A DNA stretch of 64,000 bases. It comes from an uncultured Acidimicrobiales bacterium (lineage in GTDB: Bacteria > Actinomycetota > Acidimicrobiia > Acidimicrobiales > SZUA-35). Shown piece by piece: positions 13,485 to 41,219 of this stretch (the stretch's first letter is position 1; every line of letters starts with the position of its first letter). The position numbers were made by a program, and so were the translations under genes. The notes under the pieces are model-generated. The model saw nothing but the letters and a program-made list of their open reading frames with translations. It ran no database searches and was not told where the DNA came from. The stretch spans positions 13,428 to 77,427 of the forward strand of contig CAVQRR010000002.1 in assembly GCA_963715325.1 (NCBI GenBank), written 5' to 3'.

Positions 13485-14669
13485 TCAGCGGAGCACGATC
13501 TCGGCCCACCGCTCGGTCCAATCGCTTCGGTTGGCCTCGATGTCGGCCGGGCTGATGGTCAGTGGTTCGGTGACCTCGGCGGCGTTGGCCCGGTAGAGCT
13601 CGGGCAGCGCCACCTCGGCGTTCGCCGGGGCAACGAACATGTTCAGTGGGATGTCGGCCTGGAACGTTTCCGAGAGCATGAAGTCGATCAGCTTGCCGGC
13701 CGCCGACTCCACCTCGGTGCCTGCCAGGACGCCGGCGAACTCGATCTGTCTGAAACAACCGTCTGTCATGACCTGGGTGGGTGCGGTCTCGATGGCCTCG
13801 GTGGCGAACAGCACTTCGGCAACCGGGCTCGACGCGTAGGACGTGACCAGCGCCTTGTCCCCGCCGCCGGCCACGAACTCGCCGTAGTAGGCCTCGGTCC
13901 AGCCCGGTGTGACGGTGACGCCACCGTCACGAAGCTGACGCCAATAGTCCTCCCACCCGTCCTCGCCGTAGCGGGCGATCGTGGCCAGCAGGAAGGCGAA
14001 CCCCGGCGACGACGTTTCCGGATCGGGGGTGACGAAGGAGCCGGCGAACGCCGGGTCGGTGAGGTCGTCGAGATCGGTCGGGGCGTCAGCAACCCGGTCG
14101 GTCCAGTAGTTGATGCACACGTCGCCGAAGTCGATGGGGGTGACCCGGTGCTCGGGATCGAGCTCCAGTTCGTCCGGTACGTCGGCCAGTCCCGGCGATT
14201 CGTACGGCAGGAACAGTCCGGCGTCGAGACCCCGCTGGAGAAAGGTGTTGTCGATGCCGAACAGCACATCGCCCTCCGGTTGATCGGACGACAGCACGGC
14301 CCGGGCCACCACCTCGCCGGCGTCGCCGCCCTTGATGACCTCGACCTCGATCCCGGTGTCGAGGGTGAAGTTGTCGAACAACCCATCGCTGACCGAGAAC
14401 GAGTCGTGGGTGACGAGCCGGACGACCGTGCCGGGCTCGATGGCCACCGGATCGTCCCCATCGGCCGACACCTCGGACTCGGCGGTCGTCTGCTGCTCGG
14501 CACCGTCCGCGCCGCCGGGCACCTCCTCGCCCGGTGGGCTCGCCGGGTCCTCGCTCAACGCTTCGTCGTCACCGCCGGAACAGCCCGCCGCAAGCAACGA
14601 AATCGTCAGTAGCAGTGCCGAAAAGCCGCGGACGGGGCCAACGGGCACATGGAGACGTCTGTGATGCAT
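13485..14669 (-). CDS. ABC importer substrate-binding lipoprotein, thiamine-type (TbpA/ThiB-like)
   Basis: Lipobox LLAAGCSG and a periplasmic-binding fold pattern. It lies directly downstream of a TPP riboswitch. Confidence 0.85.
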   Translation of the reverse strand: MHHRRLHVPVGPVRGFSALLLTISLLAAGCSGGDDEALSEDPASPPGEEVPGGADGAEQQTTAESEVSADGDDPVAIEPGTVVRLVTHDSFSVSDGLFDNFTLDTGIEVEVIKGGDAGEVVARAVLSSDQPEGDVLFGIDNTFLQRGLDAGLFLPYESPGLADVPDELELDPEHRVTPIDFGDVCINYWTDRVADAPTDLDDLTDPAFAGSFVTPDPETSSPGFAFLLATIARYGEDGWEDYWRQLRDGGVTVTPGWTEAYYGEFVAGGGDKALVTSYASSPVAEVLFATEAIETAPTQVMTDGCFRQIEFAGVLAGTEVESAAGKLIDFMLSETFQADIPLNMFVAPANAEVALPELYRANAAEVTEPLTISPADIEANRSDWTERWAEIVLR

Positions 14670-14671
14670 TC

Positions 14672-14768
14672 TGGCTCCCTTTCGCTGGTATTACCCAGAT
14701 CAGGTTCGGCGGGTCGACAGGGGTAGCTGTCCTCTCAGCCCGGCATCATCCGAGCTCCCCGGTTCTTG
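14672..14768 (-). promoter_or_regulatory. TPP (THI-box) riboswitch
   Basis: The minus-strand RNA reads GGGGAGCUCGGAUGAUGCCGGGCUGAGAGGACAGCUACCCCUGUCGACCCGCCGAACCUGAUCUGGGUAAUACCAGCGAAAGGGAGCC and ends 2 nt before the ATG at 14669. It contains the CUGAGA and ACCUGAUCUGGGUAAUACCAGCGAAAGGGA cores. Confidence 0.85.
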
Positions 14769-14816
14769 CTTGGTATTCGCTTGTCGTTTCGATTCTAAAC
14801 CGGCGACACTGCCTTC

Positions 14817-28923: not shown

Positions 28924-30378
28924 CTATTCGTCCCGCAGGACCTGCACGTCGTGGGGGTGGCTCTCCCGGAGCCCCGCTCCGGTGATCTTGGTCAGCCGGG
29001 TCTTGGTCCGCAGGTCCTCCAGGTTCGACGCCCCGGCATAGCCCATCCCGGCCCGCAGACCGCCCACCAACTGACCGATCAGCTCGGCCAGCGAGCCCGC
29101 ATAGCGGACCCTGGCCTCAACCCCTTCCGGCACGTGTTTGCCGGGGGCCTGGCCGGTGCCGTAGCGGTCGGCGGCCCGGCCTTTCATGGCACCGGCCGAG
29201 CCCATGCCCCGGTAGGTCTTCCACATCGAGCCGTCGACCAGCTCGAGGTCCCCCGGAGCCTCGTCGACCCCGGCCAGGGCATTGCCGAGCATCACCGCAT
29301 CGGCCCCGGCGACGAAGGCCTTGACGATGTCGCCAGAGGAGACCACACCGCCATCGGCGATGATCGGAATGCCACGGGGCCGAGCCACCAGCGAGGTCTC
29401 GTAGATGGCGGACAGCTGCGGCATGCCGGCGCCGGCCACCACCCGGGTGGTACAGATCGATCCGGCGCCGACCCCGACCTTGATCATGTCGGCCCCGGCC
29501 TCGATCAGCGCCTCGGCCCCCTCGGAGGTGACGACGTTGCCGCCGACAACGATGACGTCGGGCCACTTCTGCTTGAGGTGGCTGACCGTGTCGACGACAC
29601 CCCGCGTGTGGCCGTGGGCGGTATCGACGACCAGCATGTCGACCCCGGCCGGGATCAGGGCCTCGGCCCGCTCGGCGGCGTCGCTGACCCCGACCGCGGC
29701 GCCGACCCGGAGCCGACCCTCGCTGTCGAGGGCGGCGTGGGGTTTCTCGATCCGCTTGGTGATGTCCTTGACGGTGATGAGGCCGCGGAGACGGCCACCT
29801 TCGTCGACCAGCGGCAGCTTCTCGATGCGGTGCTCGTGGAGGATGGCCACCGCCTGATCGAGCGATGTCCCGACCGGAGCGGTGACGAGGTTGCGGGAGG
29901 TCATGAAATCGGTGACCGGCCGGTCGTCCTCGTTCTCGGTGCAGAACCGGACGTCACGATTCGTGAGGATGCCGACCAGGAGCTGGTCGTCGTCGACGAT
30001 GGGCACACCGGAGATCGAATGGCGGGCCATGATCGCCTCCGCCTCGGCCAGCGTCGCCTTCGGGGTGAGGCTGACCGGGGCCGTGATCATGCCGGCCTGG
30101 GCCCGCTTGACCCGGTCGACCTCGGCCGCCTGGGCGTCGATCGACAGGTTGCGGTGGAGCACACCGATACCACCCTCACGGGCCAGGGAGATGGCCAGCG
30201 GCGCTTCGGTGACGGTGTCCATCGCAGCCGACAGCAGCGGCACCTTGAGATCGATCCCGGCCAGGTCGGTGGCGGTCGACACCTCGTTCGGCAGGATCTC
30301 GCTCCACCCGGGGACGACCAGCACATCGTCGAAGGTCAGCGATTCGAATCCTGTCAGCAGCTCGTGGTTTCCTGCCAT
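28924..30378 (-). CDS. guaB: IMP dehydrogenase
   Basis: [12 protein letters not shown]-terminus, a CBS pair, the catalytic loop [14 protein letters not shown] and GSLVGG-type blocks. ATG 30378 is preceded by GGAGGA. Confidence 0.93.
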
Positions 30379-30431
30379 GTGTTCCTCCGATTGCAACTTC
30401 GTGTGGCGCCGGGTCGTTCCAGCCAATCAAA

Positions 30432-31059
30432 TCACAACTTGGACCGCAGTTCGGTCAACACGCTGTGAATACTCGCGACCAGCAACCGGTGCTCGGCGAG
30501 ATGGACCCGCTGCTCGAATGATGCCAGGGAATCGCCCGGCTCGAACGGCACCTCCTCCCAGGCGATGACCGGGCCGTCGTCGATGCCCTCGTCTGGCACG
30601 AAGTGAACCATCACACCCCCCGAGCGGGCCTCACCTCGTTGCCACGCCTCGAACGCCCTGGCGATGGCGCCGAGGCCGGGAAAGGCCCCCGGCTTGGCCG
30701 GGTGGAGGTTGATCACGGTGTGGTGGGCCAGGAAGGCGTCGGTCAGCACCCGGTTCCAGCCGGCGAGCACCACCAGGTCGGCGCCGACGATCTTGGCCTC
30801 GTATGCCAGCTCGGTGTCGTATTCCGCACGGTCCCGGCCCTGGTGGGGCATGACCGAGGTGGCAACCCCGGCCGCTGCCGGCCCGCTGGAGAGCGTAGGC
30901 GTCGGGGTTGTTCGAGATGACGAGCACCACCTCGGCGTCGAGCCGGTCCACGCCGGGCACGACCGGGGACGAACCAGCGCCGGCGCAGGCGTCGAGTATG
31001 GCCTGAAGGTTGGTGCCGGAGCCGGAGACCAGCACCACCAGCCGGGCCGGTCCGATCAA
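30432..31059 (-). pseudogene. purN: phosphoribosylglycinamide formyltransferase, split by one frameshift (possibly an assembly error)
   Basis: The N-terminus (LVVLVSGSGTNLQAILDA...VISNNPDAYALQRA) is in ORF 30631..31059. The remainder (AAAGVATSVMPHQG...INLHPAKPGAFPG...) is in the frame of ORF 30432..30851. Deleting one base at 30877-30882 restores ALQRAAAAGVATSV. The TTG start overlaps the purD::purM stop. Confidence 0.8.
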
Positions 31060-33362
31060 TGCAGGGCAACCCCCTGGCCGTCGACGATCCGGCCGATCAC
31101 CCTGGTCGGTTCCGGGATGGCGGCCTGGACCGCCTCCAGGTCATCGGGGGCCACGATGGCCACCATGCCGATCCCCATGTTGAGGATCTGGTGGGCCTCG
31201 ACCTTGTTCAGACCGGCCAGCCCGACCAGGAACTTGAACAGCGGCGGCCTGGTCCACGACGACGTGTCGACCACCGCCCCGCAACCGTCCGGCAGGACTC
31301 GGGGCAGGTTGTCGACGAGCCCGCCACCGGTGATGTGGGCCAGCCCCTGCAGCAGATCGCCATCGAGCGCCGCCGAGAGAGGCGCCAGATAGGAGCGGTG
31401 GACCGCCAGCAGCGCCTCACCGATCGTGGTGTCCGGCAGGCCGGGCAGCGGGTCCTCGAGATCGATGCCGGACAGGACCTTGCGGGCCAACGAGTAGCCG
31501 TTGGTGTGCAAGCCCGACGACCCGAGACCGACGAGGAGGTGCCCCGGCTCGATCGACGCCCGAGGAAGCAGTTTGGACCGTTCGACCACCCCGATCAGGG
31601 TCCCGGCGATGTCCACCGCGCCGTGGGTCAGAACGTCGGGCATCTCCGCGGTTTCGCCGCCGAGCAGGATGCAGCCGACCTCCCGGCAGGCGGCCGCCAT
31701 GCCGGACACCACCCGGGCCACGAGGTGGGGGTCGAGGGAGGCCGCGGCCACCGTGTCGAGGAAGAACAGCGGGCGGGCCCCCTGAACGAGCACATCGTTC
31801 ACACCATGATTGACGATGTCGGCCCCCACCGATTCCCAGGAGTCGAGCTGCTCGGCCAACACGGTCTTCGTGCCGACCCCGTCGGTGGTGGCCACCAGGA
31901 GCGGATCGTCGAGCCCGGCCAGCGACCTCAGGTCGAACACGCCACCGAAGCTGCCGAGGCTGCTGACCACCCGATCGTCGTGGGTGCTCAGCACCGACTC
32001 GGCCATCCTGGCGGTGGCGTCGGCGGCGGCGGCGAACGACACACCGGCCTTGGCGTAGGCACTGCCGGCCTCCACCATCGGGTCGCGTTCCGGCGCAACC
32101 CGCTTCACGTAGCGATAGCCGATGTCGGAGCGGGCGAAGAGCTGGTCGTTGACCAGCTCGTCGACCACCCCGTAGACCTTCTCCAGTGCGTCTGCCAGGT
32201 CGATGCCGGTGCCGGTCACCGACAGCACCCGGCCACCGTTGCTGATGACCCGACCGTCCTCGACCTTGGTCGAGCTGTGGATCAGGGTCACCCCGGGCGG
32301 GGTCGTCACGTCGGGGATCGGGATGTCGAGCGCCGGCGTCGTCGGGTAGCCCTTTGCCGCCACCACCACGGTGGCCGCGGTGACATCGGCGACCCGCTCG
32401 ACCTCGGCCTTCGACAGCAGCCCCCTCGATGCCAAGGCCATCAGCTCCAGCACGTCCGAGCCGATGAGAGGCAACAACACCTGGGCTTCGGGATCACCGA
32501 ACCGGCAGTTGTACTCGATGAGCCGGGGACCGTCGTCGGTGAGGATGATGCCCGCATACAGGACCCCGATGTACGGCATGCCCTCGGCGGCCATCCCTTC
32601 GACCGCCGGGACGAGGAACCGTTCGACCAGCTCCGGCTCCAACTCGGCCATGCCCGGCACAGGAGCGAAGGCCCCCATGCCGCCGGTGTTCAACCCGGTG
32701 TCACCATCGCCGACCCGCTTGTGGTCCTGCGCCGTGCCGATGGCGATGACCGTGGATCCATCGGCGATGCCGAACAGCGACAGCTCCTCGCCCTCGAGCC
32801 GCTCCTCCAGCACCACCGTGGCCCCGGCCTCGCCGAGGGTCCTGTCGGAAAGCAGGCTGTAGATGGCCCGTTCGGTCTCGACCCGATTCTCGGGGATGAT
32901 GACCCCCTTGCCGGAGGCCAGACCGTCGGCCTTGACGACGACCGGACGGTCGAAGCCGTCGAGCCACTCCAGGGCCGGTGTGACCTTGGTGAAGGACTGG
33001 CATTCCGGCCCGGGGATCCCGTGACGGGCCGCGAACTGGCGGGCGAACGACTTCGACCCCTCCAGCTGGGCCGCGGCCGCCGATGGACCGAAACAGGCGA
33101 TCCCGGCCGCGGTGACCGCATCGGCCAGCCCGGCCACCAGGGGCGCTTCGGGACCGACGATCACCAGGTCGATGGCTTCGGAACGGCAGTACTCGAGGAG
33201 CGCATCGGAATCGGCCACATCGAGTGAGACGTTGTACTCGGCGGTGCCGGCGTTTCCGGGGGCGACCGCCAGCGACGCCAGCATCGGCGACCGGGAGATG
33301 GCTCTGGCGATGGCGTGTTCCCGCCCTCCGGATCCGATCAGGAGCACATGCAGCTTGTTCAT
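31056..33362 (-). CDS. purD/purM: bifunctional phosphoribosylamine--glycine ligase / phosphoribosylformylglycinamidine cyclo-ligase (PurD-PurM fusion)
   Basis: A single uninterrupted 768-aa ORF. Residues 1 to about 425 are PurD (LLIGSGGREHA, ATP-grasp, GGRVLSVTG). Residues from about 435 to 768 are PurM (YAKAGVS..., LVATTDGVGTK, AHITGGG). Confidence 0.9.
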   Translation of the reverse strand: MNKLHVLLIGSGGREHAIARAISRSPMLASLAVAPGNAGTAEYNVSLDVADSDALLEYCRSEAIDLVIVGPEAPLVAGLADAVTAAGIACFGPSAAAAQLEGSKSFARQFAARHGIPGPECQSFTKVTPALEWLDGFDRPVVVKADGLASGKGVIIPENRVETERAIYSLLSDRTLGEAGATVVLEERLEGEELSLFGIADGSTVIAIGTAQDHKRVGDGDTGLNTGGMGAFAPVPGMAELEPELVERFLVPAVEGMAAEGMPYIGVLYAGIILTDDGPRLIEYNCRFGDPEAQVLLPLIGSDVLELMALASRGLLSKAEVERVADVTAATVVVAAKGYPTTPALDIPIPDVTTPPGVTLIHSSTKVEDGRVISNGGRVLSVTGTGIDLADALEKVYGVVDELVNDQLFARSDIGYRYVKRVAPERDPMVEAGSAYAKAGVSFAAAADATARMAESVLSTHDDRVVSSLGSFGGVFDLRSLAGLDDPLLVATTDGVGTKTVLAEQLDSWESVGADIVNHGVNDVLVQGARPLFFLDTVAAASLDPHLVARVVSGMAAACREVGCILLGGETAEMPDVLTHGAVDIAGTLIGVVERSKLLPRASIEPGHLLVGLGSSGLHTNGYSLARKVLSGIDLEDPLPGLPDTTIGEALLAVHRSYLAPLSAALDGDLLQGLAHITGGGLVDNLPRVLPDGCGAVVDTSSWTRPPLFKFLVGLAGLNKVEAHQILNMGIGMVAIVAPDDLEAVQAAIPEPTRVIGRIVDGQGVALH

Positions 33363-34774
33363 TCCAGCACCCCGTCGAACCGCTTCTTCCCGGTGGTCAA
33401 CGACAGCTGCACCGGCATCGGGTACGAGCCGGTGAAACAGGCGTTGCAGTAGCCGTCGTCGCGCCCGAGGGCCTTCATCATCCGGGGTACGGACAAGAAG
33501 CCGAGGCTGTCGGCCCCGATGTGCTCACAGATCTCCGGCACCCCCAGTTGGTGGGCGATCAACTCGTCGTAGGAGCCCATGTCGACCCCGAAGAAGCAGG
33601 GATGGGCCACCGGTGGGCAGGTGATGCGGACATGGACCTCCAACGCACCGGCATCACGGATGAGACGGATCAGCTGGTTTGCGGTCGTGCCCCGGACGAT
33701 CGAGTCGTCGACGACCACCACCCGCCGGCCGGCGATGTTCTCCGGCAGCGTGTTGAACTTGAGGGCGACACCCTGGCGCCGCAACTCGTCTGTCGGTTCG
33801 ATGAAGGTCCGACCGATATAGCGGTTCTTCACGAAACCCTCGTTGTACGGGATGCCCGACACGTTGGCGTAGCCGATGGCGGCAGGCGTCGACGAGTCCG
33901 GGACCGGGATGACGACGTCGGCCTCCACCGGATGTTCCCTGGCCAGCTCCTCGCCGAGGTTCTGCCTTGCCTGGTGAACGAGCAACCCGTCCCAGGTGGC
34001 GTCCGGCCGGGAGAAGTAGATGTGTTCGAAGGTGCAGCGGGCCTGCGACGGCTTGGCCGGCACCGCCTGGCGGATCCTGGCGATGGTCGACTGCAGCACC
34101 ACGATCTCGCCCGGCTCGATCTCCCGGATCGATTCGCAACCGAGGGTGTGGAGCGCTCCCGATTCCGAGGCGACCACATGACCACCGGATGGCAGCCGGC
34201 CCATGGACAGGGGCCGAAAACCCCAGGGGTCGCGGGCGGCGAGGACCTTCGTACCGGCGATGATCACCAGCGAGAATGCACCCTCCCAGCTCGGCATCAC
34301 CGAAGCCAGCCGCTCCTCCCAGGAGTCGCCGTCGGCCCCGGCCAACATCAGGGCCAGCACCTCGGAGTCCGATGAGGACTGCAGCCCGGCGCCTCGCTCC
34401 AGGAGCTTGGTCCGCAGTCGATCGGCATTGACCAGGTTGCCGTTGTGGGCCACCCCCAATGGTCCGTGGATCGTCTCGACGACGTAGGGCTGGACGTTGC
34501 GTTCGCTGTTCGACCCGGTGGTGGAGTAGCGGGTGTGGCCGATGGCAAGGCTGCCAACGAGAGGGTCGAGGTTGCCGGGCTGGAACACCTGGTTGACCAG
34601 GCCCTGACCCTTGTGGATCCGCACCGCCCGACCGTCGGAGACCGCGATGCCCGCCGCCTCCTGACCCCGGTGCTGCAACGCGTAGAGGCCGAAGAACGCC
34701 GACCGGGCGACATCATCGGACGGGGAGGCTATGGCCAGGACCCCGCACTCTTCCTTTGGCCGATCGAGCTCCAT
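33359..34774 (-). CDS. purF: amidophosphoribosyltransferase
   Basis: Ntn Cys after a short propeptide (MELDRPKEECGVLAI), PRPP motif VVVVDDSIVRGTT, and C-terminal Fe-S cysteines (CFFG...CNACFTG). An upstream ATG at 34879 is an alternative start. The stop overlaps the purD::purM start. Confidence 0.9.
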   Translation of the reverse strand: MELDRPKEECGVLAIASPSDDVARSAFFGLYALQHRGQEAAGIAVSDGRAVRIHKGQGLVNQVFQPGNLDPLVGSLAIGHTRYSTTGSNSERNVQPYVVETIHGPLGVAHNGNLVNADRLRTKLLERGAGLQSSSDSEVLALMLAGADGDSWEERLASVMPSWEGAFSLVIIAGTKVLAARDPWGFRPLSMGRLPSGGHVVASESGALHTLGCESIREIEPGEIVVLQSTIARIRQAVPAKPSQARCTFEHIYFSRPDATWDGLLVHQARQNLGEELAREHPVEADVVIPVPDSSTPAAIGYANVSGIPYNEGFVKNRYIGRTFIEPTDELRRQGVALKFNTLPENIAGRRVVVVDDSIVRGTTANQLIRLIRDAGALEVHVRITCPPVAHPCFFGVDMGSYDELIAHQLGVPEICEHIGADSLGFLSVPRMMKALGRDDGYCNACFTGSYPMPVQLSLTTGKKRFDGVLE

Positions 34775-34939
34775 GTCCGGGGTACCTCTCAACTGTCGGG
34801 GTCTAGTGTCGGGCGACGTGTCGTCGCCCGGCTGTTGGACCGCTGCCGCGATCTGGGGCCGAGCGGTGTGCGTCGGCAAGCCCGCCGACCCCGGTGGCGA
34901 GAGTCGCTCCGGCCGGGCCGTTCCATTGCCGCCGTGGTC

Positions 34940-35428
34940 TCAAGGCGACGCCTCGGACGCCAGCAGCTCTCGATCGCCGTCCAGCACCCGCTGTGCCGCC
35001 TTGGCCTGGTGGGCGGCGATACGATCCCGGAGCCCGGGATCACCGAGACCCAGTATCTTCGCCGCGGCCAGGGCGGCGTTGCCCGGCTCCAGGGCCACGA
35101 TGGGCGCCACCCCTGGAGGGGTTCGCAGGCTCGACAAGACGTCGAGCCCCGCAAAGGCATCCGACCGGGGCGGGCAGGCCACCACCGGTGACACCACATT
35201 GGCGTCGGTCAGTCCGGACAGGGCATCGCTCATGCCGGCAACGGTGATGAACACCGTCGGCTCTGGCGAGCCGTCGTAGTGGCGGAGCAGGTCGAGAACG
35301 TGCTCCGGGACCCGGTGGGCCGACCCGACCCGACGAATGACTGGAACGTCCAGGGAATCGAGCACGTCTGCGATCTTGTCGGCCCAATCGGCGTCGCGGG
35401 GGGACCCGCACAGGATGACGACCTGCAT
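34940..35428 (-). CDS. purE: PurE-family protein, class-II-like (AIR carboxylase type)
   Basis: 162 aa. It has GSPRDADWA...VGSAHRVPE like PurE. Where class I has AGGAAHLPG, it has VAGMSDALSGL...PVVACPP...DVLSSLRTP. It starts 6 nt after the purC stop. Confidence 0.7.
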   Translation of the reverse strand: MQVVILCGSPRDADWADKIADVLDSLDVPVIRRVGSAHRVPEHVLDLLRHYDGSPEPTVFITVAGMSDALSGLTDANVVSPVVACPPRSDAFAGLDVLSSLRTPPGVAPIVALEPGNAALAAAKILGLGDPGLRDRIAAHQAKAAQRVLDGDRELLASEASP

Positions 35429-35433
35429 GCCCC

Positions 35434-36393
35434 TCAGCCCTCGCCGCCGGCCAGAACCGAGGCCAGGTTGGTCTCGAGCCGTTTGTCCGCCGGCTGGGCT
35501 CCCGGTTCGAAGGCCAGCCCGGTCAGCGACTCGTAGAGCTGCACGTACCGGGCCGAGGTCTCGGCCCAAACCTCGTCCGGCAGCGTGGGAGGCTCGCCGT
35601 CACCGGTGTAGCCGATCTCCTTGAGGGCCAGCCGGACCGGCTCCTTGTCGAAGCTCTCCGGTGACCGGCCGGACGCGAGGCGTTCCTCCAGCGAGTCGAC
35701 GGCCCAGAACCGGGACGAATCCGGGGTGTGGACCTCGTCGATCAGCAGCAGCTCGCCGTCCGGGCCAAGACCGAACTCGTATTTGGTGTCGGCCAGCACG
35801 AAGCCGGCGTCTGCCGCCAGCTGCTCGCCTCTGGCGAACAACTCGATCGCCACCTTCTGGACCTGAGCCCACAGGCCCGGCTCGACCAGGCCCAGTTCGA
35901 CCACCTCGTCGCTGGTCACCGGCTGATCGTGTTCGCCATGCTCGGCCTTGGTGGTGGGGGTGATCAGCGGCTGACCCAACGGCCCGTGGGGGGTGAGACC
36001 GTCTGGGAGTTGATGGCCGTAGAGCAGGCGCTCACCGGCCTGGTACCGGGGCAGCAGGCTGGTGGAGGTGCTCCCTGTCAGCCGGCCTCGAACGACGACC
36101 TCCACCGGCAACGGGTCGGCGTCGATGGCGATGAGGGCGTTGGGATCGGGTACCTCGATCACGTGGTTGGCGACGATGTCGGAGGTCTTGGCGAACCACC
36201 AGGCGGCCAACTGGTTGAGGACCTGACCCTTGTGGGGCACCGTCCCGATGATGCGATCGAAGGCGCTGAGCCGGTCGGTGGTGACCAGCAGGCGACGCCG
36301 GTCCGGGAGAGGCCAGGCCTCCCGTACCTTGCCGGAGGTTCGACCCTCCAGGTCCAAGTCCACGGTCGACAAAGTCTGGTCTGGTCCCACCAC
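35434..36393 (-). CDS. purC: phosphoribosylaminoimidazole-succinocarboxamide synthase
   Basis: SAICAR synthetase blocks GKVREAW, LLVTTDRLSAFD, LADTKYEFG, LIDEVHTPDSSRFW. The start is the GTG doublet at 36393/36390 inside the run-on ORF 35434..37074. Confidence 0.88.
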   Translation of the reverse strand: MVGPDQTLSTVDLDLEGRTSGKVREAWPLPDRRRLLVTTDRLSAFDRIIGTVPHKGQVLNQLAAWWFAKTSDIVANHVIEVPDPNALIAIDADPLPVEVVVRGRLTGSTSTSLLPRYQAGERLLYGHQLPDGLTPHGPLGQPLITPTTKAEHGEHDQPVTSDEVVELGLVEPGLWAQVQKVAIELFARGEQLAADAGFVLADTKYEFGLGPDGELLLIDEVHTPDSSRFWAVDSLEERLASGRSPESFDKEPVRLALKEIGYTGDGEPPTLPDEVWAETSARYVQLYESLTGLAFEPGAQPADKRLETNLASVLAGGEG

Positions 36394-36488
36394 CCCATCA
36401 TGGCCAAGCCACGTCCCGGCGCGGGCGACGGTCGGCCAAGTTGAACAAAAAGTAAGCCGACCCCCGTGGGGTCGATCGACAAGCCGGA

Positions 36489-37601
36489 TCAACCGTGACG
36501 AACGGCGCCGACGCCGGCGGCAAAGATCGCCAGGCAGCGCCCGCCGCGGTCTTGTCGCCAGTGCGGGTCCTGCCGAGCGAAGACATGGTCCTCGGGGTGG
36601 GGCATCATGCCGAGCACCAAGCCGGACGGGTCGACGATGCCTGCGATGTCGGCATCCGATCCGTTGGGGTTCGCCGGGTAGGCGCCGCCGGCCGGGGCGC
36701 CGTCGGCGTCGCAGTAGCGGAACGCCACCAGGTCGGCCGAGCCGATGGCCGCGGCGTCGGTGGTCACGAATCGCCCCTCGCCGTGGGCCACGGGACAGCG
36801 GACCGGTGCCGACAGTTCGGCCATCCATGGCGAATGCCTGGCGCCGGGGGCCAGGCGGACCCAGCGGCACTCGAAGCGCCCGTTTGCGTTCTCGGCCAGC
36901 GTGGCCGCGACAACGCCTCCTGCGCCGGTGGGCCGCAGGCTGTGACCGGAGGGTTCGGATGGTTCGACGTCGCCGGGGAGCAGCCCGGCCCGGACCAGGG
37001 CCTGGAAACCGTTGCAGATCCCGATGATCGGCATCTCCCGTTCCCTGGCCTCGTTGAGCTGATCGGCGAACCACCCGCTGAGGTCGAGGGCCAGCAGCTT
37101 GCCGGCACCGAGGGCGTCGCCGTAGGAGAAACCGCCGGGCAGGGCCAGCAACTGATGGTCGATCAACTTGACCTCGCCGCTGCGAAGCAGTTGGAGCGGC
37201 ACCTGGTTGACCTCGGCTCCGGCCGCCCGGAACGCCATCGCCAACTCCTCGTTGCGGTTGGTGCCGGGGGCGATCGGTAGCAGCACGGTCGGCTTTCTGC
37301 CGCTCGGATCACGCCGATCGCCAAGGTCACCGGGTTCGGACGGGGCACCTTCGGGGTCGGTGTGTTCGGCCTGGCCGCCGCCGGGGTCGGTGTGTTCGGC
37401 CTGGCCGCCGCCGGGGTCGGTGTGATCGGCCTCGGCGCCGCCGGCCTCGATGTGATCGGCCCGGCCGCCGCCGGGGTCGGTGTGATCGACCTCGGCGCCG
37501 CCGGCCTCGGTGTGATCGGCGTCGGTGTGTTCGGCCCGGTCCGCAGCGACCGGACCGCCATCCACGTCCGCCGAATCGTGGTGGGCCGGCTCACCGCTCA
37601 T
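36489..37601 (-). CDS. purQ: phosphoribosylformylglycinamidine synthase subunit PurQ, with possible repeat-containing N-terminal extension
   Basis: GATase core: GICNGFQAL catalytic Cys, MMPHPE. ATG 37601 overlaps the purL stop (ATGA) and would add about 105 aa of His/Asp/Gly-rich repeats. The alternative core start is GTG 37286 (MLLPIAPGTNRNEE). Confidence 0.85.
   Translation of the reverse strand: MSGEPAHHDSADVDGGPVAADRAEHTDADHTEAGGAEVDHTDPGGGRADHIEAGGAEADHTDPGGGQAEHTDPGGGQAEHTDPEGAPSEPGDLGDRRDPSGRKPTVLLPIAPGTNRNEELAMAFRAAGAEVNQVPLQLLRSGEVKLIDHQLLALPGGFSYGDALGAGKLLALDLSGWFADQLNEAREREMPIIGICNGFQALVRAGLLPGDVEPSEPSGHSLRPTGAGGVVAATLAENANGRFECRWVRLAPGARHSPWMAELSAPVRCPVAHGEGRFVTTDAAAIGSADLVAFRYCDADGAPAGGAYPANPNGSDADIAGIVDPSGLVLGMMPHPEDHVFARQDPHWRQDRGGRCLAIFAAGVGAVRHG
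37353..37535. repeat. 30-bp tandem repeat, about 6 copies (GGGGTCGGTGTGTTCGGCCTGGCCGCCGCC and variants)
   Basis: Read directly from the sequence. On the minus strand it encodes decapeptide repeats of the type AEHTDPGGGQ / AEADHTDPGGG. Confidence 0.85.
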
Positions 37602-40463
37602 GGCCGCACCTCGGTGAAGGTCGACGATTTGAAGGCCCGGCCGATCTCGTCGAGACCGATGTCGACCTCGATCCCGATCCGCAGCCGATCGTCTTCGGTG
37701 ATCCAGCCGATTCGCACCGCCGAAGGCACGGCCTCGGCCAGCCGATCGGCATCGTCGGGTCGGATCTCCAGTAGGTACCGTCCGGGCCCTTCGCCGAACA
37801 GCTCGTATGGGCTGTGCCGCTCGGCAAGGGTGATCGACAGGCCCCGTCGACCGGCGAAGGCCCATTCGGCGGCCGCAACGGCAAGGCCACCTTCTGCGAT
37901 GTCGTGGGCGCTCACGACCATGCCGGACCGGATGGCCTGATGGACGGTGCGGTGGCGGGCCGCCGCCTCGGGATCGGCACCGGGCACATGACCTCCCCTG
38001 TCGCCGCCGGTCACCTCGTCGAGGTAGCTGCCGCCGAGGGCGCCGGTGGCCGGCCCGACCAGCCAGACGTCGTTCCCCGGCGTGGTCAGCCCGACGGCGG
38101 GGATCGTCGTCACGTCGTCGACGGTGCCGACAGCGGTGATGATCAGGGTCGGGGTGACCGGGTCGGCGACACCGTCGACTCCGACGAACTCGTTGAACAG
38201 CGAGTCCTTGCCGGAGACGAACGGGGCGCCATAGCCGACGGCCGCATCGTGGCAGCCCCGGCAGGCCGCAACCAGCCTGCCCAGCATCTCGGGGTCGGTC
38301 GGATCACCCCAGGCGAAATTGTCGAGCAGCGACAGCCGATCGGGGTCGGCGCCCGCCACCACGACGTTTCGCACCGCCTCGTCGACTGCGGCCCAGGCCA
38401 TCGACTGGCAATCGAAGCGACCGATCAGGATGGCGGCACCGATGCCGATGGCGACACCCCGCAGCGGGTCGGCCTGCTCGGTGCCGGGTGGGAATCATCA
38501 CCGTGCCGTCGGCCGGACCGTCCAGCTCGGCCCCGTCGTACGGCCGAACCACGGTACCGCCGAGCACCTCGTGATCGTAGGTTCGAATGACCGACTCGTT
38601 CGAGCGCAACGACGGATGGGCCAGCAGCGCCTTCAGCGCCTCGACCGGTTGGATCTGGTCGCCGACGATCTCCACCGGGTGACGGGGTTGGCGGGCGTCG
38701 TCCACCGACACCGCCTGCAGCTCGAGCCGGGGGCGCCCGTCGTGGAGGAAGCGGCAGTCGAGGTCGATCACCACGTCCTCACCGTCGAGCACCAGGAGAC
38801 GGCCGTCTCCGGTGAACCAGCCGATCACGGTGGCATCCACCTGCCATTGGTCGGCCAGCGCCAGGAGCGGGACCGGATCCGGTACGGCCATCACCATCCG
38901 TTCCTGGGCCTCGGACAGCCAGACCTCCCACGGTGACAACCCGGGATACTTGCGAGGCACCTTGGCCAGATCGACCTGGGCGCCGAGACTCTCGGCCATC
39001 TCACCGACGGCCGAGGACAGGCCCCCGGCCCCACAGTCGGTGATGGCGTGATACAAACCGGCATCGCGGGCCGCCACGACCAGATCGATCAGGCCCTTCT
39101 CCACCACCGGATCGCCGATCTGGACCGATGATCCTGCGATGTCGGCGGTTTCGACGCCCATCGACTGGGAGGAGAAGGTGGCCCCACCGACCCCGTCACG
39201 ACCGACCGCACCGCCGAGGACGACCACGAAGTCGCCGGCGATGGCGTTCGTCGGGTTCGAGCCCTTCGGCAAGAGGCCGAGACAGCCGGCGAAGACGAGC
39301 GGGGTGGTGGTGTAGCTCGGATCGTGGAAGATGGCACCGGCCAGATTGGGAACGCCGATCTTGTTGCCGTAGTCGCCGACGCCTGCGATGACACCGGACC
39401 GGACCCGCAAGGGATGGAGCACACCGTCGGGCAGGGCGTCGACCGGGAGATCTTCGGGACCGAAGCACAACACGTCGGTGATGGCGATCGGTTTCGCAGA
39501 CACCCCGAGGATGTCGCGGACGACGCCGCCGACACCGGTGTTGGCCCCACCGAAGGGCTCGAGGGCCGAAGGATGATTGTGGGTTTCGGCCTTGATGGCG
39601 AGATCGAACCGATCATCGAAGTTGACGATGCCGGCGTTGTCGACGAAGGCGCTCTCGACCCACGGGGCGTCGATCGCCTCGGTGGCGCCCCGGAGGTAGG
39701 TGTCGAGCAGGCCGTCGATCGGGCCGTCCGGGGTGGCGACCAGTGCCCGGAACGTCTTGTGCGAGCAATGCTCGCTCCAGGTCTGGGCCAGCGTCTCCAG
39801 CTCGCCGTCGGTCGGCTCCCTGCCCTCGGAGGCGAACCACTTCTGGATGGCCTCCATCTCATGGCCGCTGAGACCGAGCCGCCTGGTCCGGCTGACCTCA
39901 CCAAGCCCGTCGTGGTCGAGGCCGCCGATGGCGATCCTGGCGGTGGGGACAACCGATGCGTGCAGGTCGGCATGGGCCGGCGCCAGCTCGTCGGTCGCCC
40001 AGCGCTCGATCACCGTGTTGTGCAGCACTCGATCGGCCAGTTGCTCGAGTTGCTCGTCGTCGAGCTCGCCGTAGATCATCCACCGGGTGGCGACCGTCGC
40101 CGCCTCCAACGGGAGCCCGAGCTCACCGGCCGCACGCAGCAACTCGGTACCTTCTCTGTCGGTCACCCCGGGACGCAGCCCGGTTTCGACGATGCTGACC
40201 CGGCCGTGGCCGGACGGCGGCAGGTGTTCCCGGCGGTACATCCACCATTGATTCACGGGGTCGACGAGGAGCCGGTCCACCAGCTCCTCGATCTGGTTGC
40301 GGTCGAGGTCGCCCCGGAGGTGAATCACCCGGTAGGCGACGATCTGGTCGACCTCGACACCGAACAACCGGGCTTTCACCGCCGGGCCGTCCGGCCCGGC
40401 ATCAACCGTGCCCGGGCCGATGACAATGGCGAAATCCCTGGCTGTCCCCACCCCGAACAGCAT
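37598..40463 (-). pseudogene. purL: phosphoribosylformylglycinamidine synthase subunit PurL with two N-terminal PurS-like modules; one frameshift (possibly an assembly error)
   Basis: The ATG 40463 frame (ORF 38304..41009) carries the PurS-like modules and the PurL core (WSEHCSHKTF, ETHNHPSALEPFGGANTGVGG). After ...GTVMIPT the protein continues in the frame of ORF 37598..38401 (GTEQADPLRGVAIGIGA...MAWAAVDEAVRN). The shift is at the G-run 38486-38488. Confidence 0.85.
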
Positions 40464-40501
40464 GTCGGATCCGGGGCCGGGCGTGGCAGATTCGTCCCCC
40501 T

Positions 40502-40518
40502 TTTTACCAATTGTAAAA
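40502..40518. promoter_or_regulatory. AT-rich near-perfect palindrome in the purL / nucleotidase divergent promoter region
   Basis: TTTTACCAATTGTAAAA has 8 arm positions with one mismatch. It sits in an otherwise GC-rich 102-bp gap between purL (ATG 40463, minus) and the plus-strand gene at 40566. Confidence 0.35.
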
Positions 40519-40565
40519 CCGCAGACGGCTGCCGGGGCCGGGTTGGTGGCTGAGCGGCTAGCGTC

Positions 40566-41219
40566 TTGCCGGTGAGTTCGAGTTTTGTCCTGGGGGTCGA
40601 TCTGGACGGCGTCTGCGCCGATTACAACCTCGGCTTTCGAGAGATCGTCGCCGCTGATCGGGGGGTCGAGCCGGAGAGCTTGGCCATGCCGACGCAGTGG
40701 GGTTTCGAGAGTTGGGGCCTCGACGAGGGCGAGTACCTGCGGCTGCACAAGCTGGCGGTCACAGAGAAACGTCTGCTGCGCCATCTGCCGGCGGTGGAGG
40801 GCTGCGCCGACGCCCTGTGGCGGCTGTCCGACCTCGGCGCCTGGATCCGCATCATCACCCACCGGCTCTACACCAACTGGGGCCATGCCACCGCGGTTTC
40901 CGACACCGTGGCCTGGCTGGACGAGCAGCGCATCCCCTACCGCGACCTCTGCTTTCTCGGTGCGAAACCGCAGGTCGAGGCCGATGCCTACATCGACGAT
41001 GCGCCCCACAACATCGAAGCACTACGCCAGGCAGGCAACTCGGTGATCATCTTCGATCAGCCATACAACCGCGGGCTCGACGGGCTCCGGGCCCGGAACT
41101 GGACCGAAGTCGAGGAGCTGGTGGCCGATCTGGCGGCCAGGAAGGGGGCGGTCCAGCCGCAATTGCCCGGCTTCGACGCCGGATCGGAGAGGCTCGATCG
41201 CAAACGGGGCGGGCGCTGA
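40566..41219 (+). CDS. HAD-superfamily 5'(3')-deoxyribonucleotidase-like nucleotidase (NT5C family)
   Basis: DxDxV motif (GVDLDGVCADY), IITHR and DAYIDDAPHN blocks. 217 aa. Confidence 0.8.
   Translation: MPVSSSFVLGVDLDGVCADYNLGFREIVAADRGVEPESLAMPTQWGFESWGLDEGEYLRLHKLAVTEKRLLRHLPAVEGCADALWRLSDLGAWIRIITHRLYTNWGHATAVSDTVAWLDEQRIPYRDLCFLGAKPQVEADAYIDDAPHNIEALRQAGNSVIIFDQPYNRGLDGLRARNWTEVEELVADLAARKGAVQPQLPGFDAGSERLDRKRGGR

Follow-up and report, generated by a model that had tools for sequence, protein, structure and literature searches.

A fused purD-purM gene in a purine operon of an uncultured Acidimicrobiales bacterium is the normal state of its lineage and very probably arose within bacteria

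RESULTS

A purD-purM fusion lies within a cluster of pur genes

The window, by which we mean the whole 64-kb stretch of DNA that was analyzed, contains a cluster of purine biosynthesis genes read from the minus strand, within which purD and purM form a single gene, here called purDM (Table 1). The original prediction of an uninterrupted 768-aa ORF was borne out exactly as described, as was its claim that the ORF holds a complete PurD and a complete PurM: five Pfam domains follow one another in one frame (GARS_N, residues 5-101; GARS_A, 102-293; GARS_C, 329-417; AIRS, 487-593; AIRS_C, 605-767), with the GARS domains matched in full (profile positions 2-100 of 100, 1-194 of 194, and 1-92 of 92, respectively) and AIRS and AIRS_C scoring 76.7 and 98.7 bits. 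The protein also exceeds the cut-offs of both curated NCBI equivalog_domain models, TIGR00877 for purD (444.7 bits against a cut-off of 288; residues 5-419, profile positions 2-424 of 425) and TIGR00878 for purM (306.8 bits against 236.35; residues 435-761, profile positions 2-331 of 332). Motifs of PurD (GSGGREH, QDHKR, NTGGMG, and RFGDPE) and of PurM (DGVGTK, GGETAEM, HITGGG, and HTNGY) are present in the window protein, and the catalytic motifs of both halves recur in 109 to 121 of 121 relatives; the P-loop-like, N-terminal GSGGREH is found in 116 of the 121 lineage members and R[LF]GDPE, the PurD signature PS00184 as cited in PMC3261824, in 121 of 121. The opposite strand holds a 722-aa antisense ORF (31059..33227, plus strand); long chance ORFs are possible because the DNA is 69% GC. 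The family scores mark the minus-strand ORF, and not this one, as the gene. An identical protein is present in the database (P0287). No GAR transformylase domain lies at the C terminus of the purDM product, which ends at a stop codon at 31056-31058. By homology, the ORF is predicted to encode both GAR synthetase and AIR synthetase.

Table 1. Location of the purDM gene, its modules, and the neighboring genes in the window
Feature	Position	Strand	Basis or remark
purD-purM fused gene, purDM (predicted bifunctional GAR synthetase / AIR synthetase)	31056..33362	-	768-aa ORF, ATG start
PurD (GARS) module, residues 5-419	32106..33350	-	TIGR00877, motifs, structure superposition
Inter-domain linker, residues about 420-434 (YVKRVAPERDPMVEA)	32061..32105	-	Low pLDDT, hypervariable spacer
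PurM (AIRS) module, residues 435-761	31080..32060	-	TIGR00878, motifs, TM
guaB (IMP dehydrogenase), last gene of the cluster	28924..30426	-	IMPDH 477.8 bits + CBS
purN (GAR formyltransferase)	30432..31059	-	TTG start; two ORFs in different frames
purF (amidophosphoribosyltransferase)	33359..34879	-	Pfam GATase_6/7 + Pribosyltran
Putative class II purE (AIR carboxylase type)	34940..35425	-	PDB match ranking
purC (SAICAR synthetase)	35434..36420	-	Top NCBIfam match NF009251; ends 8 nt before purE
purQ (FGAM synthase glutaminase subunit)	36489..37604	-	GATase_5 195.6 bits, residues 104-364
purL (FGAM synthase II)	37598..41009	-	FGAR-AT_linker, AIRS, AIRS_C

The sequence of the inter-domain linker had been quoted correctly in the original prediction. 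This spacer is hypervariable, at 5 to 40 aa (median, 16), and is in frame in 117 of the 117 clusters examined; its most frequent length in Acidimicrobiia is 8 aa (22 clusters). The fusion junction aligns without gaps to that of a 92%-identical relative (L001). The AF2 model of the protein as a monomer has a mean pLDDT of 89.9 and a pTM of only 0.57, with pLDDT below 50 confined to residues 425-433 and 469-471 and at about 90 in the PurM half. The PurD half superimposes on solved PurD structures with TM scores of 0.88-0.94 (1gso, 0.88) and the PurM half on 3m84, 2z01, 2btu, 5avm, and 1cli with scores of 0.87-0.96 (5avm, 0.96), and no PDB chain among the structure matches to the model covers both halves. 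The model suggests that the linker acts as a flexible, disordered tether. A methionine at residue 431, just ahead of the PurM module, is conserved between the window and L001 and may leave room for some internal initiation yielding free PurM.

The stop codon of purF (TGA) overlaps the ATG of purDM as ATGA (gaATGAac), and the stop codon of purDM (TGA) and the TTG start of purN share 4 nt (CAT TGA / TTG ATC); the latter overlap, noted in the original prediction, is likewise 4 nt in the L001 gene call. A 1-nt insertion near position 30879, which the original prediction did not mention, nor the purF overlap, breaks the purN reading frame; there, alignment to L001 reveals one extra base in the window; the split ORFs carry positions 2-46 and 62-180 of Formyl_trans_N, and the PurN of L001 is intact (211 aa; TIGR00639, 164 bits). 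The purL gene is also broken by a 1-nt insertion relative to L001, at about 38496: the ORF at 38304..41009 holds FGAR-AT_linker, AIRS, and AIRS_C, and that at 37598..38401 holds another AIRS/AIRS_C pair. The purL product possibly has a PurS-like N-terminal region. Programmed frameshifting of purN was ruled out, as the 92%-identical relative lacks the extra base and has an intact purN, and the second, unrelated single-base insertion in purL also counts against it. These frame-breaking indels indicate that the base-level accuracy of the window assembly is imperfect, which makes the concern of the original prediction over an artefact at the junction a reasonable one. An exact-sequence contig look-up with the window protein found no independent same-strain assembly.

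As for the other genes of the cluster, guaB occupies the same position in L001 as in the window. The purC product scored 365.2 bits against NF009251, slightly under the cut-off of 371, and the L001 purC gene call contains SAICAR_synt. The purE product appears nearer to class II enzymes (T. denticola PurE and the PAICS AIRc domain) than to class I: in the PDB it matched 3rg8, which we take to be the T. denticola class II PurE, at 135.7 bits, PAICS at 81 and 78 bits, and class I entries (N5-CAIR mutase type) at about 38-57 bits. It scored 63 bits against 2ywx, whose annotation goes no further than a carboxylase catalytic subunit, and 115 bits, under the cut-off of 149.6, against TIGR01162, the purE model described by NCBI as N5-CAIR mutase. 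This animal-type, putatively class II purE follows purC, the order also found in PAICS. The ~14-kb pur cluster of the window shows no purK. The translated purQ ORF has an N-terminal extension of acidic/His-rich repeats. An Rfam scan near the operon found no purine-related riboswitch.

The fusion is routine in Acidimicrobiales and recurs in other prokaryotes

All 120 of the homologue clusters listed, at 55-92% identity, have the five-domain architecture, save for two truncated protein entries; they derive from Acidimicrobiales/Actinomycetota MAGs and contigs of 4.9-5.4 Mb in NCBI, ENA, JGI, and Logan assemblies. Neither an artefact nor a rarity, the fusion is the normal state of the Acidimicrobiales lineage, and since the architecture is routine among the 120 clusters listed, a finding that the original prediction had itself named as a refutation, the rarity in bacteria implied there is not supported, and the claim of novelty falls with it. 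IMG labels the relatives bifunctional, and the NCBI name for them is "phosphoribosylamine--glycine ligase," which gives the PurD activity only.

Single-ORF PurD-PurM fusions were also found, among the matches listed, in Anaerolineae (L005-L007), Rectinema/Rectinemataceae (Spirochaetota; P0122), and the marine archaeon ARS54 (L010/P0210), and a Chlamydiales MAG (P0134) carries the reverse-order PurM-PurD fusion. These proteins resemble the window protein in uniting the same two enzymes in a single ORF and differ from it in their identity to each of its halves (29-50%), in belonging to other phyla, and, in one case, in being reversed; they probably represent events separate from the Acidimicrobiia fusion. 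The pattern used for the contig scan, GETAEMPD, is near-universal in PurM; the scan samples lineages, and the window's own genome is not among the matches listed. Many "full-length" tblastn matches proved to be adjoining genes, not fusions, and were left out of the fusion count. Among the matches listed, purM and purD are adjacent in Planctomycetales and Omnitrophota, and purM-purN-purD are adjacent in Spirochaetota and Peptococcaceae. Where purD and purM are unfused, the two genes may still overlap, by 4 nt (ATGA) in both Anaerolinea sp. L034 and Elusimicrobia L068, and in L082, the PurD of which nests within the Acidimicrobiia clade, by 8 nt; given overlaps of 4-8 nt, one small indel would therefore fuse both genes. 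Added together, the tails of unfused purD and purM come to roughly the 8 aa of the most frequent Acidimicrobiia spacer. Anaerolineae and Elusimicrobia have the purD-purM-purN gene order in common with the window, and in L034 this order is preceded by purF (by homology to L001), as in the window.

Relation to the eukaryotic GARS-AIRS and GART proteins

The window protein has GARS and then AIRS in a single polypeptide, as does a eukaryotic-type GARS-AIRS, and the description in the original prediction of GARS-AIRS followed by purN, matching the Ade5,7/GART order and uniting steps 2 and 5, stands; the rarity that it implied is not supported. Ade5,7 (S. cerevisiae; Cryptococcus neoformans 7lvo/7lvp, PMC8449271) likewise has GARS_N/A/C and then AIRS/AIRS_C in a single chain, with both halves homologous to those of the window protein (318 and 235 bits), and fungal and amoebozoan GARS-AIRS proteins, some 770-800 aa long, join steps 2 and 5 through a linker that is short and flexible, as here. 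In contrast to Ade5,7, the window PurM half is of the bacterial Chloroflexota/Thermus type, and the gene lies in a bacterial operon with overlapping stop and start codons. The animal trifunctional GART (human 2qk4/2v9y, PMC2978367) shares the order of purD-purM and then purN along the DNA, and by analogy with it a dimer built on AIRS, with GARS attached flexibly, is likely here, whereas the window purN is a separate, frameshifted cistron with a 4-nt overlap rather than a fused domain. Sea-urchin and butterfly proteins are about 43-45% identical to the window protein in the PurD half and 39-40% in the PurM half. The closest solved relatives by sequence are E. coli PurD (1gso), T. thermophilus PurM (5avm), and B. 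anthracis PurM (2btu); monofunctional PurD and PurM presumably perform the same chemistry as the modules that are covalently joined in the window.

In the PDB, the PurM half scored 303 bits against Thermus (5avm), 291 against Bacillus (2btu), 237 against human, and 235 against Cryptococcus, and the PurD half scored 375 against E. coli PurD (1gso), 365 against human GARS, and 318 against Cryptococcus. The Acidimicrobiia form a clade in the neighbor-joining (NJ) trees of both PurD (bootstrap, 100) and PurM (97); this clade lies amid Chloroflexota-type PurM in the PurM tree, with eukaryotic AIRS elsewhere, and stands on its own without a eukaryotic sister in the PurD tree, where deep nodes are unsupported. 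Bootstrap values at the deep nodes of the trees are negligible (0-40), so the case for independence from eukaryotes rests on the PurM half and the score ranking, and we claim no specific donor lineage or exact number of fusions. The original prediction had proposed separate PurD and PurM trees as a test for lateral origin, and in neither do the Acidimicrobiia group with eukaryotes, so that the two halves are not both sister to eukaryotic sequences as common descent with the eukaryotic fusion would have them. Eukaryote-type representatives occur in several arrangements (D-M, D-M-N, D-N-M, and D-M-M-N). Because neither the trees nor the PDB scores point to eukaryotes, and the PurM half resembles that of Chloroflexota and Thermus, the likeness to Ade5,7 and GART appears to be convergent and to have arisen separately inside bacteria.

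DISCUSSION

We consider it very probable that purDM encodes a genuine bifunctional PurD-PurM enzyme that is maintained as the normal state of Acidimicrobiales and that was fused inside bacteria, independently of Ade5,7 and GART. The enzyme would comprise an N-terminal PurD (step 2) and a C-terminal PurM (step 5) tethered by a short disordered linker, and it would be expressed by translational coupling from the purF-purDM-purN part of a large pur operon. The fusion most likely began in bacteria as adjacent purD and purM genes with overlapping stop and start codons (ATGA), and a single small indel would have removed the purD stop and brought purM into frame, after which the fusion would have been selectively maintained in the lineage. 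Each module would retain its own chemistry, and the protein would probably dimerize through its PurM module, as do free PurM and the human and fungal GARS-AIRS, leaving the PurD modules to swing on the linker. The benefit may be a fixed 1:1 stoichiometry and co-localization; direct channeling is not proposed, because steps 2 and 5 are not consecutive.

A falsely joined pair of genes, in which a base was lost from an ATGA-type purD/purM overlap during sequencing or assembly, would be in keeping with the single-base insertions in purN and purL and with the fact that fused and unfused relatives differ by just such a small indel. The chance of this is almost negligible, as the same single ORF occurs in the 120 independent clusters listed, the 4.9-5.4 Mb contigs included, linkers differ in length by multiples of three nt throughout, and the junction is gapless against L001. 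It is extremely unlikely that one half is a degenerate remnant and the protein effectively monofunctional: the NCBI names of the relatives, which would suggest as much, are an annotation shortfall, and against such a remnant stand the scores of both halves above their equivalog cut-offs, the conserved motifs and confidently predicted fold of PurM, and the operons of the window and L001, in which no separate purM was seen.

Lateral transfer in either direction could have given the bacterial and eukaryotic GARS-AIRS fusions a shared origin, and the identical domain order followed by purN, mirroring GARS-AIRS-GART, a PurD half that resembles human GARS almost as closely as it does E. coli PurD, and the succession of purC and an animal-type, putatively class II purE in the same operon are all in its favor. 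We nonetheless regard a shared origin as very unlikely, since the PurM half is clearly nearer to the PurM of Thermus, Bacillus, and Chloroflexota than to any eukaryotic AIRS, neither NJ tree groups Acidimicrobiia with eukaryotes, the eukaryote-type arrangements themselves vary, and unfused ATGA-overlapping intermediates exist within bacteria. Highly improbable, too, is the bolder idea that the window operon represents a bacterial forerunner of both the GART order (purD~purM, purN) and the PAICS order (purC, class II purE), with the eukaryotic fusions descending, by inheritance or transfer, from such operons or fusions. Within bacteria, one ancient fusion may have spread horizontally to Acidimicrobiia, Anaerolineae, Rectinema, and others, in place of several fusions. 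The PurM tree places Acidimicrobiia, P0125, Rectinema P0122, P0123, and the Anaerolineae L005-L007 in one broad region, and these fused proteins are the best full-length matches outside Acidimicrobiia among the matches listed; yet the same region holds unfused Chloroflexaceae, Ktedonobacteria, P0261, P0162, and P0250, with node bootstraps of 2-42, and the PurD tree groups the fused Anaerolineae with the unfused Anaerolinea sp. L034, near unfused Chloroflexota PurD and apart from Acidimicrobiia. The reverse-order Chlamydiales protein and the very divergent archaeal group further imply that fusion is easy and repeated, and a single spread is thus rather doubtful, if a serious contender. The reading that we prefer is a fusion formed inside bacteria and kept by Acidimicrobiales, with the eukaryotic likeness arrived at separately.

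Nothing in this finding overturns current understanding, and its implications are of a practical and comparative kind. Because the NCBI names give only the PurD activity, purM may be scored as missing, and name-based metabolic reconstruction of Acidimicrobiales MAGs could wrongly report step 5 as absent; the IMG naming of the fused proteins is correct. No description of a bacterial GARS-AIRS fusion turned up in literature searches, and bacterial GARS and AIRS are stated to be encoded "almost exclusively" by separate genes, with the GARS-SAICAR synthetase fusion of Francisella cited as a rare bacterial exception (PMC8449271). The latter PurC-PurD type, known here from that statement only, resembles purDM as a bacterial PurD fusion to a non-consecutive step and differs in its partner enzyme. 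Contrary to the generalization in PMC8449271, a lineage widespread in the environment has the GARS-AIRS fusion as a fixed trait, and no fewer than four further groups of prokaryotes carry one, in a single case reversed; the fusion offers a clean natural case of convergent fusion joining non-consecutive steps of a pathway. According to PMC8449271, AIRS forms dimers, and the kcat/Km of GARS for PRA, compared for C. neoformans, is higher with AIRS attached. A bacterial GARS-AIRS, being compact, could serve as an easy model of the benefit of the eukaryotic fusion, whether in stoichiometry, metabolon assembly, or the handling of PRA.

A single reading frame joins PurD and PurM

The fused protein carries, in one frame, the Pfam domains GARS_N (residues 5-101), GARS_A (102-293), and GARS_C (329-417), all complete, followed by AIRS (487-593) and AIRS_C (605-767), and it exceeds the cut-offs of the NCBI curated models for both purD (TIGR00877; 444.7 bits, cut-off 288, residues 5-419) and purM (TIGR00878; 306.8 bits, cut-off 236.35, residues 435-761). 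The original prediction of a single 768-aa ORF holding a complete PurD and a complete PurM is therefore borne out, and the linker sequence it quoted is correct. One database protein (P0287) is identical to the fused protein and another (P0285) differs by one residue. The DNA here is 69% GC, at which long ORFs may be spurious, but the family scores favor the minus strand and decide which strand is real; the antisense ORF opposite purD-purM is a high-GC shadow ORF rather than a gene. The start codon (ATG) of the fused gene shares bases with the stop of purF (gaATGAac), and its own stop overlaps the start of purN by 4 nt, as had been described; the window sequence confirms this overlap and shows the purN start to be TTG, and the same overlap is in the gene call of L001 (GCA_947259095.1), the closest relative compared (92% identical). 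Given stop/start overlaps at both ends, purF, purD-purM, and purN would be translationally coupled.

Features of the window and PDB matches of the two halves of the fused protein
Feature	Coordinates	Strand	Basis or description
purD-purM fused ORF	31056..33362	-	768 aa, ATG start, single ORF
PurD half, bacterial PDB match			E. coli 1gso 375 bits
PurD half, eukaryotic PDB matches			human 2qk4 365 bits; Cryptococcus 7lvo 318 bits
PurM half, bacterial PDB matches			Thermus 5avm 303 bits; Bacillus 2btu 291 bits
PurM half, eukaryotic PDB matches			human 2v9y 237 bits; Cryptococcus 7lvp 235 bits
Antisense ORF	31059..33227	+	722 aa
purN	30432..31059	-	two frames
purE, class II AIR carboxylase type (animal/Treponema)	34940..35425	-	PDB scores
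purQ	36489..37865	-	N-terminal extension
purL	37598..41009	-	frameshifted
PurS-like stretch	~40000..40190	-	residues 274-338 of ORF 38304..41009
TPP riboswitch (RF00059)	14659..14771	-	59 bits, gathering score 54.3

Concern that the purD-purM junction is an artefact is legitimate, because single-base insertions break both purN and purL nearby. A single extra base at ~30879 (GCCGGCAGCGG versus GCC-ACTGCGG in L001) splits purN into pieces carrying Formyl_trans_N positions 2-46 and 62-180, whereas the L001 PurN is intact at 211 aa; either the assembly is wrong here or purN has recently become a pseudogene. In purL, the insertion relative to L001 is at ~38496, with ORF 37598..38401 carrying the second AIRS/AIRS_C pair. 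That essential genes show two frameshifts within ~14 kb suggests sequencing prone to indels. A check of the junction against raw reads had been proposed, and comparison with relatives bears on the same point: the junction is gapless in alignment to L001, and all 120 homologue clusters listed (55-92% identity) have the same five-domain architecture save two truncated entries. These clusters were drawn from NCBI, ENA, JGI, and Logan assemblies, some on contigs of 4.9-5.4 Mb. With FAR.DIG marking the C-terminal end of PurD and Y..AGV the N-terminal end of PurM, the spacer could be delimited in 117 clusters, and in every one it is in frame, although its sequence is hypervariable and it can be as short as 5 or as long as 40 residues (median, 16). 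Catalytic motifs are kept in both halves, in 109-121 of 121 proteins. A variable but in-frame spacer with retained motifs is the mark of selection to keep the two frames fused and not of error, and an assembly or sequencing artefact is rejected.

Distribution among prokaryotes

Relatives of the fused protein carry the source names Acidimicrobiales or Actinomycetota. Their IMG label, 'phosphoribosylamine--glycine ligase / phosphoribosylformylglycinamidine cyclo-ligase', names both activities, while the NCBI label covers PurD activity only. We scanned one genome per species and then used an ORF check to tell true fusion from adjacency; among the matches listed, single-ORF fusions occur in Acidimicrobiales (L002-L004), Anaerolineae (L005-L008), and a marine archaeal MAG (L010). 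An exhaustive search over 50%-identity representatives added Rectinema/Rectinemataceae (Spirochaetota; P0122), several GC-rich metagenomic clusters, and a Chlamydiales MAG with the reverse order, PurM-PurD (P0134). A divergent GARS-AIRS group of ~20 clusters (~740-850 aa), in which only L010 (632..3004) and P0210 (marine archaeon) bear an archaeal source name, is probably archaeal. The same search found four proteins of ~1000-1165 aa (P0132, P0133, P0138, and P0161) in the order GARS-GART-AIRS, with the formyltransferase central, unlike the animal GARS-AIRS-GART; IMG naming makes one of these clusters a bifunctional ligase/formyltransferase. The rarity originally ascribed to a bacterial PurD-PurM fusion thus fails by its own measure, as the architecture is routine in the lineage and recurrent elsewhere: the suggested domain-architecture search finds it across the 120 listed clusters and in other prokaryotic groups.

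Relationship to the eukaryotic enzymes and origin of the fusion

The likeness to animal GART and fungal Ade5,7 is real in architecture and order, with GARS then AIRS and the GART activity next. The PDB scores, BLAST, and neighbor-joining trees gave no evidence of descent shared with the eukaryotic fusion. The PurD half is uninformative on this question. For the PurM half, a close eukaryotic relationship is rejected by its PDB bit scores, by BLAST identities (unfused Chloroflexaceae PurM, 50-55%, versus sea-urchin, butterfly, and fungal proteins, 38-40%), and by tree placement. Separate PurD and PurM trees, as had been suggested (99 and 90 sequences, respectively; 100 bootstraps), each unite the Acidimicrobiia fused proteins in one clade (support, 100 and 97); in the PurM tree, this clade lies among bacterial Chloroflexota-type sequences, away from the eukaryotic cluster. 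As deep nodes are unsupported, the rejection is limited to the PurM half and the count of fusion events is imprecise; some transfer among bacterial phyla may have occurred.

Unfused neighbors with overlapping genes appear to represent the precursor. Both Anaerolinea sp. (L034) and Elusimicrobia (L068) have an ATGA in which the stop codon of purD and the start codon of purM overlap, and a small indel within an overlap of this kind would remove the stop and join the frames. Among Acidimicrobiia, a spacer of 8 residues is the most frequent (22 clusters), close to the 9-10 residues that the C- and N-terminal tails add up to in the unfused genes, and this agreement, with a single small indel sufficing, would explain the recurrence of the fusion. 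In L082 (2451..2458), purD and purM are separate, in different frames with an 8-nt overlap (ATGAGTAG), and its PurD falls within the clade of fused Acidimicrobiia proteins; either the pair predates fusion, has split secondarily, or reflects a 1-nt error in a 2.5-kb Logan contig. A stand-alone PurM (P0250; L083/L084, 3001..4005) groups as sister to the PurM half of the Acidimicrobiia proteins (bootstrap, 99). Its gene adjoins those for both subunits, large and small, of ribonucleotide reductase and several ORFs lacking a Pfam match, possibly a viral or auxiliary-gene setting.

Other features of the pur cluster

PurE scores 136 bits against 3rg8 (T. denticola class II PurE), 81/78 against PAICS, and about 38-57 against class I mutase chains, and does not reach the cut-off of TIGR01162, the purE model. 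Its gene follows purC after 8 nt, the SAICARs-AIRc domain order of animal PAICS, and purK was not seen in the pur cluster examined. A typical PurQ is ~225 aa; the window PurQ has an unusual N-terminal extension of ~100 aa, especially 37293..37604, of acidic His-rich repeats (AE[HV]DHTDPGGG[QR]...) that do not align to the L001 PurQ (322 aa). A PurS-like match, weak at 21.8 bits (cut-off 22.2), immediately precedes the FGAR-AT linker in PurL (954 aa in L001); purL may thus have a PurS-like region at its N-terminus, and this may be a purS-purL fusion in the lineage. The TPP riboswitch is the sole match in an Rfam scan of the window, which detected no purine riboswitch.

Predicted structure and significance

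Modeled with AlphaFold2 from 45 lineage sequences, the protein reaches a mean pLDDT of 89.9 but a pTM of only 0.57, and pLDDT drops below 50 only in the linker (residues 425-433) and at residues 469-471; the two bodies are thus predicted to be well defined and their mutual orientation not. In Foldseek, the N-terminal body matched experimental structures of PurD (TM 0.88-0.94) and the C-terminal body those of PurM (TM 0.87-0.96), and no solved chain covered the two together. Two autonomous active sites would be joined by a flexible tether, and if free PurM and the GARS-AIRS proteins of fungi and humans (PMC8449271, PMC2978367) are taken as analogues, a dimer via PurM with mobile PurD modules is expected. 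For the bacterial fusion, we infer bifunctional working throughout from such analogies. As steps 2 and 5 are non-consecutive, the gain is probably fixed stoichiometry and co-localization; in Cryptococcus, the attached AIRS is reported to raise the GARS kcat/Km for PRA ~three-fold (PMC8449271).

In the literature searched, bacterial GARS and AIRS are described as monofunctional, with PMC8449271 placing them 'almost exclusively' in separate genes, and neither PMC10912719 nor an archaeal survey (PMC3261824) mentions a PurD-PurM fusion. Prokaryotic fusions are visible in databases, and as far as we found, they are not discussed in print. The fusion reported here is a bacterial, convergent case of a known bifunctional enzyme type, useful to some extent in annotation and as an illustration of how enzymes evolve.
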